Shown piece after piece: positions 9,235 through 29,549 of a DNA stretch of 38,572 nt. Every line of letters begins with the position of its first letter. Position 1 is the stretch's first letter. This stretch comes from an uncultured Candidatus Saccharibacteria bacterium (GTDB taxonomy: Bacteria > Patescibacteriota > Minisyncoccia > UBA6257 > UBA11618): assembly GCA_964363475.1 (NCBI GenBank), contig CAYIII010000004.1:1-38572 (forward strand), in the 5' to 3' direction. Position numbers and translations under genes: made by a program. Below the pieces are notes generated by a model. That model made no database searches. It was given only the letters and a program-made list of their open reading frames with translations, and was not told the DNA's origin.

Positions 9235-10443
9235 CTAAAACACTTGCACTAGATTGTATATCGGCAAAAGAATTGCCGCAAATAATAAACCCACTAATCC
9301 TCCAATTAAAATCATTAAACTTGGCTGAATTAATTCAACTAAATTATTGACTAAATTATCAACTTCTCTGGTATAAAATTGAGAAATTCTGTTAAACATT
9401 TCCGACAAACGGCCGGTGCTTTCTCCCACCGCCACCATTTGGCTCACTAATGAGGGGAAAAGAAACTCATATTCTTCAAGGGATTGGGATAATAATTGGC
9501 CTTGGCGAATTTTATCAGCCACCTCATGCAAAGCATCCCGATAATTAATGCTGGTAGTGGTATGACCGCTTATTTCTATCGCTTGGGCTATCGGTATGCC
9601 CCCCTTAATTAAAATACTGGTTGCGTCAGCAAAACGGGCCACATAAAATTGCTTAAACAAGTGGCCGATAATCGGTGAACTTAACAGTAATTGGTCGTAA
9701 ACCACCTTTCCTTCGTCGCTTTGAAAATAATCAAAAAGCAAAATAAAAAATATGAGTAAAATAAAAATAATAGCAAACCACCAGTTAGCCAGAAAATTGC
9801 CTATAATCAAAAAAATAGTGGTAATTAAAGGCAAGGACACGTTCGCGTCACGAAAAATCGGCTCAATTTGAGGAAAAACTAAACCCATCAATACGCCTGC
9901 CGTTAATACAAATAAAACTATAACAAAAATTGGATAAATCATGGCATTTCTAACCTTAGAAACCAATATAGTTTCTTTCTCTAAATAATCTGCCAAAAAA
10001 CTCATCGCCTCTTCAATTCTTCCCGTTATTTCAGCGGATTTAATTAAATTAATGTAAAATTCCGAAAAAATATTCGCGTGTCTTTCCAGGGACTGCGACA
10101 ATGAAAGGCCGGAATCAATATCGGTGGAAATTTCAAAAATCGCCTCTCTCAAAACGACATTATGAGTATTCCTGTAAAGACTTTTTAAAGCGTCGTTTAA
10201 AGGAACCGCCGATTCAAGCATTGTGGCCAATTGCCTGGTAAAAACCATCAGGTCAATTCTGCGAACGCGATTAAAAAAAATTAAAAACTTGCCGTACCAA
10301 ATCGGCGCTTCCATTGATTCCATACTCAAGACATACAAATCATGGCCGTTTAAGATATTAACGGCCGCTTCTTTGGTAACCGCCTCCACAAATCCAATTT
10401 GCAGTTCTCCTGTTTTAGTTCTGGCGCTATATTTTAATTTCAT
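9235..10443 (-). CDS. pilC: Type IV pilus inner membrane platform protein PilC (GspF family)
   Basis: FTRQLATMLES, two GspF repeats, MVAVGESTGRL, ILLPIY. Confidence 0.93.
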   Translation of the reverse strand: MKLKYSARTKTGELQIGFVEAVTKEAAVNILNGHDLYVLSMESMEAPIWYGKFLIFFNRVRRIDLMVFTRQLATMLESAVPLNDALKSLYRNTHNVVLREAIFEISTDIDSGLSLSQSLERHANIFSEFYINLIKSAEITGRIEEAMSFLADYLEKETILVSKVRNAMIYPIFVIVLFVLTAGVLMGLVFPQIEPIFRDANVSLPLITTIFLIIGNFLANWWFAIIFILLIFFILLFDYFQSDEGKVVYDQLLLSSPIIGHLFKQFYVARFADATSILIKGGIPIAQAIEISGHTTTSINYRDALHEVADKIRQGQLLSQSLEEYEFLFPSLVSQMVAVGESTGRLSEMFNRISQFYTREVDNLVNNLVELIQPSLMILIGGLVGLLFAAILLPIYNLVQVF

Positions 10444-18410: not shown

Positions 18411-18590
18411 TGGCGGTGGGGGTGAGCGCTATCGCTACTCGAACAATTTGGAAACCCTCGGTTTCCAACGGTCGCTTCGCGACCTGCCTTCCTACACGGG
18501 AAACTCCCGTTTCCCGACCCTTTCCCGTTCGAATCTCACCCTCAACAGCAGAAACAAAACAGGGTCTTATGCCCTGTTTTGTTTCTGATG
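18411..18590 (-). mobile_element. ~180-bp structured element at tRNA-Ser 3' end
   Basis: 14-bp duplicate of tRNA 3' end with CCA (18411-18426), antisense T-arm copy (18527-18541), 16-bp hairpin (18549-18587), GC hairpins shared with 28662-28845. Confidence 0.7.
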
Positions 18591-18676
18591 CGGTGGGGGT
18601 GAGATTCGAACTCACGATGCCTTTTGAGCATAACACTTTTCAAGAGTGCCGCCTTAATCCTCTCGGCCACCCCACC
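18591..18676 (-). tRNA. tRNA-Ser(TGA)
   Basis: GGTGGGG/CCCCACC acceptor, G73, anticodon loop CTTGAAA, long variable arm, GTTCGAATC T-loop; followed by CAT, not CCA. Confidence 0.95.
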
Positions 18677-28618: not shown

Positions 28619-28666
28619 GGTGCCTGCACCGCGAAGCTCATCAATTTATTGATGAGCGAAGTGGTG
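28619..28666 (-). repeat. Mini palindromic insert at the duplicated tRNA-Ala 3' end
   Basis: CACCAC-TTC-GCTCATCAAT-AA-ATTGATGAGC-TTC-GCGGTG-CAGG-CACC. Confidence 0.65.
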
Positions 28667-28845
28667 GACCTACGGGGAGTCTCACTGCTCAGCCGACGTA
28701 CGTCGGCTTGCGCTCTAAAACCTTGCGGTTTTAGTATTTCCACCTTGGAGGGGAAACCTGCGTTTCCCCTCCATCACCACCCCTTGTTCAATTCCCAGGC
28801 CAAGACAAAAATAGCCGTCTTAAATTAGACGGCTATTTTTGTCTG
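28662..28845 (-). mobile_element. ~180-bp structured element at tRNA-Ala 3' end
   Basis: 15-bp duplicate of tRNA 3' end with CCA (28662-28678), antisense T-arm copy (28786-28802), perfect 18-bp hairpin (28803-28844), hairpins shared with 18411-18590. Confidence 0.7.
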
Positions 28846-28916
28846 TGGACCTACGGGGAATTGAACCCCGCCCTCCTCCATGCCATGGAGGCGTAATACC
28901 GATTTACTATAGGCCC
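28846..28916 (-). tRNA. tRNA-Ala(GGC)
   Basis: GGGCCTA/TAGGTCC acceptor with G3:U70, A73, CCTCC-ATGGCAT-GGAGG anticodon arm, GTTCAATTC T-loop. Confidence 0.92.
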
Positions 28917-28952
28917 AAACTAAGACCATTTTAATTTAAAATCCGCAACCTT

Positions 28953-29549
28953 TCAAGAAGGTTGCGGAGGGGGTTTTTCCGCCAATATCGCGGCGTTCAT
29001 GATTTCTCCTTCAAGCGTGTCTCCGCCTACTTGAATACAAATAAGAGGAACTCCGCTACCGGCTCGGCGAGCGCTTTTAATTTTCATTTCTATTTCAAAA
29101 ATATCCGTGTTCTTCAATCTTTTTTTGAAACTAATATTATTGCGAAGAAAAACTAATTTGTATTGCCTCATCAGCTCTTCAAAAAGATATTCTTGCTTCG
29201 TAAAATGACTCTTCTTCATTCTTAAACGCCACCGAAAATACCAAGGAATAGATTTATCAGACATCAACTTTTCCATTTCCGCTTCGGTCAGCAATTCAAC
29301 TTTTCCGTCATTAATTAAAAAATCTATAAAAACATAAACTAATTGGGAAAGCGCCAAGTAATACTGGACGCCGGTAATATGGTCGGTTTTCTTTTTAGTA
29401 TAGCTGTAATTGTGAGGGGCTCTCATTCTGGCCTTAATTAGCCTTGGTTCTTGATCCGAATATTCCACTATTTCTACCAGACAAATGGCCCACTTTTTAT
29501 AAATGCCGCGCAACAACACAAGGCCTCTTTCTGTTAAATTTTCCTTCAT
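28953..29549 (-). CDS. Hypothetical protein, possible hot-dog fold (FcoT-like thioesterase)
   Basis: DHITGVQYYLALSQLVY helix followed by beta strands (NISFKK, FEIEMKI) resembles a hot-dog fold. Confidence 0.4.
   Translation of the reverse strand: MKENLTERGLVLLRGIYKKWAICLVEIVEYSDQEPRLIKARMRAPHNYSYTKKKTDHITGVQYYLALSQLVYVFIDFLINDGKVELLTEAEMEKLMSDKSIPWYFRWRLRMKKSHFTKQEYLFEELMRQYKLVFLRNNISFKKRLKNTDIFEIEMKIKSARRAGSGVPLICIQVGGDTLEGEIMNAAILAEKPPPQPS

Follow-up and report, generated by a model that had tools for sequence, protein, structure and literature searches.

A segment on the minus strand of the window, the whole 38,572-nucleotide stretch of DNA that was analysed, lies behind a tRNA-Ala gene and is probably one copy of a family of miniature insertion cassettes of Patescibacteria that encode no protein; that is, it is likely to be a mobile element. 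The best reading, set against known systems, is that the element is miniature mobile DNA of a variant not yet described, whose arms derive from the target. The initial annotation had proposed a retargetable family in which a conserved scaffold is combined with a variable target-matching part. Our analysis supports this proposal, as the core is kept from copy to copy and the arms follow the local gene; the target-matching parts could be products of the insertion event rather than guides.

The genome holding the window (G000) measures 506 kb in 29 contigs, is 95.6% complete and has 31 tRNA genes. To describe the layout of each copy, we call the copy of the target gene end X, a hairpin or short flank f or F, the inverted copy of X X′, the core S, and the upstream and downstream repeat copies T1 and T2 (Table 1). 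All of the features initially listed for the Ala locus are present on the minus strand in the order given when checked in the sequence, including a T1-to-T2 distance of 181 nt for the 15-nt direct repeat.

Table 1 Parts of the cassette at tRNA-Ala and its sister copy at tRNA-Ser, with positions in the window
Feature	Position	Strand	Basis
tRNA-Ala(GGC) gene	28845..28916	-	ARAGORN (anticodon GGC); Rfam RF00005, 57 bits against a threshold of 29
T1, repeat copy 1, final 15 nt of tRNA-Ala, TCCCCGTAGGTCCAC	28859-28845	-	sequence
F1, 18-bp perfect hairpin, loop AATTTA, 5′ arm A-rich, 3′ arm T-rich	28803..28844	-	sequence and fold
X′, TGGCCTGGGAATTGAAC	28786..28802	-	11-nt antisense match; pairs with the T-arm in the minimum-energy fold
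S core: J1 AAGGGGT.., P1, J2, P3	28715..28785	-	R1 match 28711-28778; P3 covariation; P1
Variable 3′ part of S: hairpin GCCGACGTACGTCGGC (28707-28692), then TGAGCAGTGAGAC	28679..28714	-	sequence; motif recurs in many copies
T2, TCCCCGTAGGTCCAC (28678-28664) plus CA, reads ..ACCA	28662..28678	-	direct copy of tRNA 3′ end
Sister copy: tRNA-Ser(TGA) (18676-18590), then hairpin, X′ (GGGTGAGATTCGAAC), S, T2 CTCACCCCCACCGC plus CA	18411..18676	-	ARAGORN; R1

The tRNA-Ala gene terminates in ..GTAGGTCCAC, which is followed by AGAC, and thus CCA is not encoded. The hairpin F1 is terminator-like and is part of the insertion. The 18 bp of its stem are all paired without mismatch, and TATTTTTGTCT lies in the 3′ arm; a consensus terminator scan does not list it, because the T-run sits within the stem. 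In other copies, F1 is specific either to the locus or to the cassette. Located 48 nt behind the tRNA, the X′ segment GGGAATTGAAC reproduces 11 nt of the T-arm (T-loop and T-stem), GTTCAATTCCC, as an exact reverse complement. An antisense match to both the T-arm and the acceptor had been suggested for this arm: the T-arm portion is exact, but its TGGCCT complements the acceptor strand in shortened and degenerate form. In the minimum-energy fold of this locus, X is paired with X′, and the complementarity reaches up to 22 nt in other copies.

Within the Ala core, hairpin P1 is formed by GGGGAAAC-GCAG-GTTTCCCC (also delimited as GGAGGGGAAAC-GCAG-GTTTCCCCTCC), the purine-rich joiner J2 (..GGTGGAAAT) contains GGAA, and hairpin P3 is formed by CTAAAACC-GCAA-GGTTTTAG. 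The variable 3′ part of S carries a GUGAGA motif that forms tandem G.A pairs with a 5′ GAAC, and the motif GAGCAGTGAGAC lies between the third hairpin and T2. The 181-nt insert contains no open reading frame. Its fold z-score is -4.4 when taken alone and -11.2 together with the tRNA. A promoter-like site (TTGAAA, 17-nt spacer, TAAAAT; 10/12) is located just upstream of the tRNA-Ala gene at window positions 28928-28956 on the minus strand, and none is present within the insert.

The Ala segment had been described as a diverged copy of the architecture at tRNA-Ser, and this description is borne out: the parts occur in the same order at both loci, the arms are specific to the adjoining tRNA, and both copies are matched by a covariance model (R1) built from 30 copies, all of them from other genomes. 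When the whole window was scanned on both strands, R1 scored 55.7 bits (E 1.6e-13) on the Ser copy and 25.4 bits (E 2e-5) on the Ala copy, compared with 10.3 bits (E 0.2) for the best unrelated match. The similarity of the scaffolds is therefore far above background.

Across the whole of G000, R1 yields five matches, two of which are at contig ends. Among the 31 tRNA genes of this genome, a downstream direct repeat and an antisense arm occur together only at tRNAs that are followed by the scaffold, namely Ser(tga), Ala(ggc), Glu(ttc) and, with a variant, Gln(ctg). The core is also present behind Ser(gct) and Tyr(gta), where the contigs end inside it. These contig ends within near-identical cores indicate that the assembly breaks on the repeat. 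Copies with an identical S reside behind different tRNAs and carry unrelated hairpins. In all three complete copies of G000, T2 is followed by CA, which gives CCA, whereas T1 lacks CCA. The CCA behind T2 might have pointed to mature tRNA, and thus RNA, as an intermediate, an idea that we dropped: the copies of relatives lack CCA.

A second core type was observed in the same genome behind tRNA-Gln(ctg) (contig C10 1377-1601, plus strand; L002:378-602), and it also occurs inverted in a hairpin behind tRNA-Ser(cga) (contig C7 ~9705-9815, minus strand; within L005). These two copies are related to each other (score 61), and the C7 copy has the joiner CCCGTGGNGGAAGGCAGG in common with the main type (score 42, shuffles up to 25). 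The second type has GGGGGTCGGGG at its 3′ end rather than its 5′ end, and a circularly permuted version of the main type is suggested; a permutation comparison of the variant core at tRNA-Gln gave a score of 25 against a shuffle maximum of 29, which is not significant. Two further loci of G000 carry gene-end copies. Behind tRNA-Ala(tgc) (contig C7 12898-13000, plus strand; L007) are two partial, coreless copies of a tRNA-Ala 3′ end, GGGTCCACCA and a 26-nt copy running from the T-arm to the end, which may be relics of lost cassettes. At tRNA-Ala(cgc) (contig C18 ~2830-2936; L006), a scaffold gap of 100 N is followed by a 19-nt direct copy of the tRNA's own 3′ end, and this locus probably holds another cassette that collapsed in the gap.

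The core S spans roughly 70 nt. Its invariant or nearly invariant elements are GGAAGGGGUC, the segments GGGAAAC/GUUUCCC, the purine-rich joiner ending in GGAA and the tip AAACC-GNG-GGUUU. P1 is almost invariant, and RNAalifold applied to MAFFT alignments recovered P1 only; P3, analysed by script in 46 copies, has an outer stem that occurs in 19 different versions, each of them complementary. In 47 of 53 copies (p = 4e-9), the better fold is that of the sense strand (the one on which the upstream gene is read) and not that of its complement. No strand bias is observed for the closing helix formed by X′ and X (24/53), and this helix thus provides no support for RNA over DNA. Optional hairpins are inserted at two places in the core, and many of them carry GCGAAGC, a mini-hairpin that is hyperstable as DNA. 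Single-stranded DNA could thus be the active form just as RNA could. In some copies (L062, L078 and L097), the P3 loop holds a small nested insert (GGGCGACC ... GAAGTACTCTTGTGGTG, or an unrelated 60-nt piece), which is a second mini-element targeting the first.

The core is spread widely but patchily in Patescibacteria. Its exact pattern was found in at least 117 stretches of the genome collection, nearly all of them titled as Patescibacteria or CPR MAGs, whereas viral contigs yielded none. When 401 genomes of the phylum were sampled, an exact 14-mer was present in 31 of them, compared with 2 of 401 for a reversed control. R1 detects the core in 40 of 121 genomes of the class, with 1 to 28 copies in each, and finds none in the rest. 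Among the matches listed, 59 of 80 loci have a same-strand tRNA gene 20-170 nt upstream, representing many isoacceptors, and 48 of these 59 have a direct repeat of at least 9 nt; the remaining listed loci include tRNAs missed by ARAGORN and the ends of protein genes. The protein-gene copies are located at three rplL genes, an L11-like gene and an S9-like gene, and one is antisense at the 5′ end of an RNase H-like gene (L097). The genome with 28 cores (G549, 0.9 Mb; L162-L181) carries most of them in mosaic intergenic arrays of short hairpin repeats (GTCYTCCCTT..GGGAGG units), some with two or three cores per 3 kb, and its sister genomes have 10 and 12 cores.

The core matches no Rfam family, with only tRNA and hairpin-type noise returned for the window copies at E up to 10 and for eight further loci at E up to 0.5. 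At the same thresholds, neither the catalytic-core models of group I and group II introns nor the self-cleaving ribozyme classes of Rfam (hammerhead, twister, HDV-like, pistol, hatchet and others) gave a match in these copies. Full-text literature searching returned nothing relevant in titles or abstracts.

Presence or absence at orthologous sites, which the initial annotation had put forward as a check, proved to be polymorphic. The site at tRNA-Glu(ctc) is unoccupied in G000, whereas G001 and G002, both of the same genus, carry an insertion there; the flanks are collinear, and the inserted stretch contains the hairpin, the inverted arm, the core and the second repeat. At rplL, the core is present in 3 of 20 related loci, and the closest relative is without it. 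At tRNA-Ala(ggc), it is present in one of eight family loci and in none of the seven others. The sequence that follows T2 of the Ala copy shows homology (score 36, shuffle maximum 24) to that lying immediately after the empty tRNA-Ala of G010. On the basis of the locus counts and this homology, the Ala copy is a lineage-specific insertion, and T2 with its flank is the native end, displaced from the gene and still joined to the sequence that natively follows it. In G001, of the same genus, the Ala locus has a different neighbour and lacks the tRNA, and the Ser flank gives only a short match. Among the contigs of four DNA runs, one contig of run X3 spans the Ala copy; none skips the element, and no circular or excised form was seen.

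This distribution bears on the reading that S is an immobile non-coding RNA or 3′-end structure of the host, which would act in the stabilization, processing or termination of transcripts. Such a role would accord with the fact that S is far better conserved than neighbouring intergenic DNA between G001 and G002, and with the preference for highly expressed genes (tRNAs and ribosomal proteins). However, the patchy occurrence, the empty orthologous sites in close relatives, the existence of tandem and nested copies, and the near-identical copies that break contigs all speak against it, and we consider a purely host-encoded structure very unlikely.

The arms always match the local gene, and they differ at Ser, Ala, Glu, Gln, Tyr, Arg, Met, Asp, Val, rplL, the S9-like gene and the RNase H-like gene. 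Arms measure 11-22 nt, direct repeats 9-54 nt and inserts about 119-300 nt. The rplL copies indicate which parts travel. There, X′ matches T1 (15/16, 15/15 and 15/17) rather than T2; the differences between T1 and T2 are synonymous or conservative only; and F2 resembles the terminator of an empty relative, whereas F1 resembles the cassette F1 in two other genomes. Several copies have a T2 that is shortened or decayed. Over 69 nt, T1 and T2 of the antisense copy at the RNase H-like gene differ in the same synonymous manner, which rules out splicing as the cause of the differences there. Together, the match of X′ to T1, the resemblances of F1 and F2, the decay of T2 and the pattern of the antisense copy indicate that T1, the hairpin, X′ and S behave as the incoming unit and that T2 is a relic. 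Among the counter-signs, the duplicated stretch of some copies takes in native flank or terminator sequence (up to 54 nt), and in some young copies, such as L153, f1 is the same as the native terminator f2 or nearly so; the unrelated hairpins found with identical cores in G000 are a further counter-sign.

Other, unrelated structured cores were observed at the rplL 3′ ends of G440 relatives (L149, L150, L157 and L144), in the same layout of gene end, inverted copy, core and second gene end, and these are also without an Rfam match. At L144, a 24-nt perfect palindrome of the gene end surrounds the terminator and has no core.

Direct repeats of a tRNA 3′ end around foreign DNA are the classical signature of genomic islands, and the loci could in principle be leftover attachment sites of integrase-driven tRNA islands that have since been deleted. 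Synonymous replacement gene ends are known from phages integrated in protein genes, such as phage 21/e14 in icd, and they fit this idea as well. Yet hundreds of loci share one conserved 70-nt core between their repeats, the inserts of 119 to ~300 nt hold no island genes, no integrase was found in G000, and an inverted copy of the attachment site is foreign to such scars. We therefore attach hardly any credence to island scars as the source of these loci.

A further reading places the activity at the level of RNA: S would be a ribozyme, X′ its guide against the upstream RNA and T2 a replacement 3′ exon, so that the whole would resemble a small intron or trans-splicing RNA. Engineered trans-splicing ribozymes combine an antisense guide, a structured core and a copy of the 3′ end of the target, and the parts of the cassette follow this order. 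The sense strand is structured and has GNRA-type loops, the 5′ acceptor strand of the tRNA pairs with T2 in the fold of tRNA plus insert, and the CCA formed by T2 and CA in the three complete G000 copies, along with the synonymous rplL differences, would suit a replacement exon; the possibly circularly permuted variant core is suggestive. In contrast, S RNA from the antisense copy could not splice the mRNA of the RNase H-like gene, and yet the same synonymous pattern is observed. Furthermore, T2 is truncated or has lost the stop codon in L099, L092, L095 and L151, a terminator-like hairpin separates the gene from S, the core of ~70 nt has no Rfam ribozyme or intron match, and no RtcB ligase was found in G000. 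We downgraded the intron with T2 as exon because of the antisense copy and the copies with decayed T2, and now regard an RNA-level device as quite improbable.

A mobile cassette thus stays the preferred reading, and a route by circle and hairpin is the most likely single mechanism for it, followed by fold-back template switching and then by a ribozyme or intron. The chromosomal order is gene..X-f-X′-S-X-native flank, so that the gene retains a complete end together with a terminator of its own, while the native end persists as the relic T2. The moving unit would be a small circle [X-f-X′-S], probably single-stranded, in which X may fold against X′ to yield a hairpin copy of the target. Entry by a single crossover inside X would produce exactly X-f-X′-S-X, and repeated entry would produce tandem arrays. 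S, as RNA or single-stranded DNA, would be needed for the cycle by the host machinery or by the element. Tandem units of the form [X f X′ S] are present at tRNA-Arg(tct) (L175), and three copies of the gene end are present at rplL (L036). Taken as a whole, the statement that a protein-less cassette moves by this circle and hairpin route seems to us about evenly poised between right and wrong.

Searches for a mobility enzyme bear directly on this route. No reverse transcriptase, tyrosine or serine recombinase, IS110, TnpB or RtcB was found in G000 at its 95.6% completeness, and no reverse transcriptase, Y1 transposase or Nop-domain protein was found in five high-copy carrier genomes; Nop-domain proteins were included as possible partners for tandem G.A or dual-guide RNA. 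Each of the five carriers has exactly one tyrosine recombinase, and the Xer type was not detected in G000. A tyrosine recombinase would be the obvious host enzyme for circle entry, and its absence from the G000 search counts against the route. A sequence-specific recombinase as the mover would not explain the dozens of different X sequences, and the one-crossover model leaves unexplained how both X and X′ come to be rewritten when the target changes. Identical cores with unrelated hairpins, together with the copies in which f1 resembles f2, indicate that X, the hairpin and X′ are all rewritten in one process when a new target is acquired. Because f1 equals f2 in some young copies, duplication in place fits these copies as well as circle entry does.

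Rewriting of this kind is what a replication-based process with no free intermediate would offer. In that scheme, a nascent strand would come to a halt where a highly expressed gene has its terminator, fold back on the hairpin to generate X′ from the gene end, switch to an existing S and return at X, giving the whole of X-f-X′-S-X in a single event. Both arms would be rewritten automatically and no mobility enzyme would be required. Several copies have a palindrome that is continuous from the gene end through the hairpin into X′, the repeat length is variable (9 to 54 nt) and often takes in the native flank or terminator, f1 and f2 are nearly identical in L153, and extended gene-end palindromes that lack S occur, as in L144. 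However, template switching gives no reason for the near base-for-base conservation of S across CPR classes or for its strand-specific structure. Moreover, T1, F1 and X′ at rplL look imported whereas T2 and F2 look native, the left and right arms of the palindromes often differ by deletions, and three switches must recur hundreds of times with the same outcome. For these reasons, we judge this process unlikely to be the origin of the family. A bolder version of the mobile cassette assigns more to the core: S would be a catalytic or guide nucleic acid, and the ~150-nt element would insert itself and rebuild its arms with ubiquitous host machinery or by its own chemistry, with the unrelated cores of the same layout as independent solutions. 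We put this version forward tentatively and consider it doubtful; if true, it would make the cassette a self-retargeting mobile element of a kind not described before.

If the preferred reading of a mobile cassette is true, some of the smallest bacterial genomes (0.5-1 Mb) harbour an active mobile element of ~150 nt, with no transposase or reverse transcriptase found in the six that were tested. This element would target the ends of essential conserved genes harmlessly and carry a copy of the target in both orientations. It would raise the questions of which host enzyme or nucleic-acid catalyst moves it, how its arms are rewritten and whether the core is a new RNA or DNA fold. There are also practical consequences: the repeats break MAG assemblies at tRNA genes, and a gene end that has been displaced can be misread as a pseudogene or a fragment of a tRNA.

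Several known systems resemble the S-cassette in part. The attC cassettes of integrons and the attP of CTX phage do so in the proposed architecture: inverted site halves pair to form a hairpin that imitates a double-stranded target, a small circle integrates by strand exchange and leaves the hairpin halves adjoining in the chromosome, and an element that lacks its own enzyme functions in a strand-specific manner. However, attC and CTX attP recombine at a fixed attI or dif through IntI or XerCD, whereas the S-cassette hairpin copies the end of any targeted gene, with dozens of sequences. The S-cassette also has the additional conserved core S, and no recombinase was found in G000. The islands and phages that integrate into tRNA genes with a replacement gene end are likewise similar, in that repeats of a tRNA 3′ end flank the insert, a functional end is supplied and the native one is displaced, and differences at the ends of protein genes are synonymous. 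Unlike these, the S-cassette measures 120-300 nt, holds neither genes nor an integrase, carries an extra inverted copy of the site and uses one core for many targets.

MITEs and REP/BIME repeats are, like the S-cassette, short, non-coding, multi-copy, structured, intergenic and patchily distributed, and one genus with S-cassettes has mosaic arrays. In MITEs, the terminal inverted repeats are fixed and the target duplication is short and constant in length, whereas the arms of the S-cassette are target-derived and its duplication varies from 9 to 54 nt. The bridge or seek RNA of IS110 and the omega RNA of IS200/605 share with the S-cassette a structured scaffold combined with short target-matching segments, one for each strand. 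Here the differences are that no IS110 or TnpB was found in G000 and no Y1 in the five carriers, that the element has no coding capacity, and that the arms of 11-22 nt pair with each other. Finally, group I introns and trans-splicing ribozymes, as well as R2 elements with a 5′ ribozyme that pairs with upstream rRNA, join an antisense segment, a core and host-derived 3′ sequence and are inserted in highly expressed RNA genes, as is the S-cassette. The S-cassette differs from them in that its core is too small and matches no Rfam family, no reverse transcriptase was found, and some copies reside where splicing is impossible.
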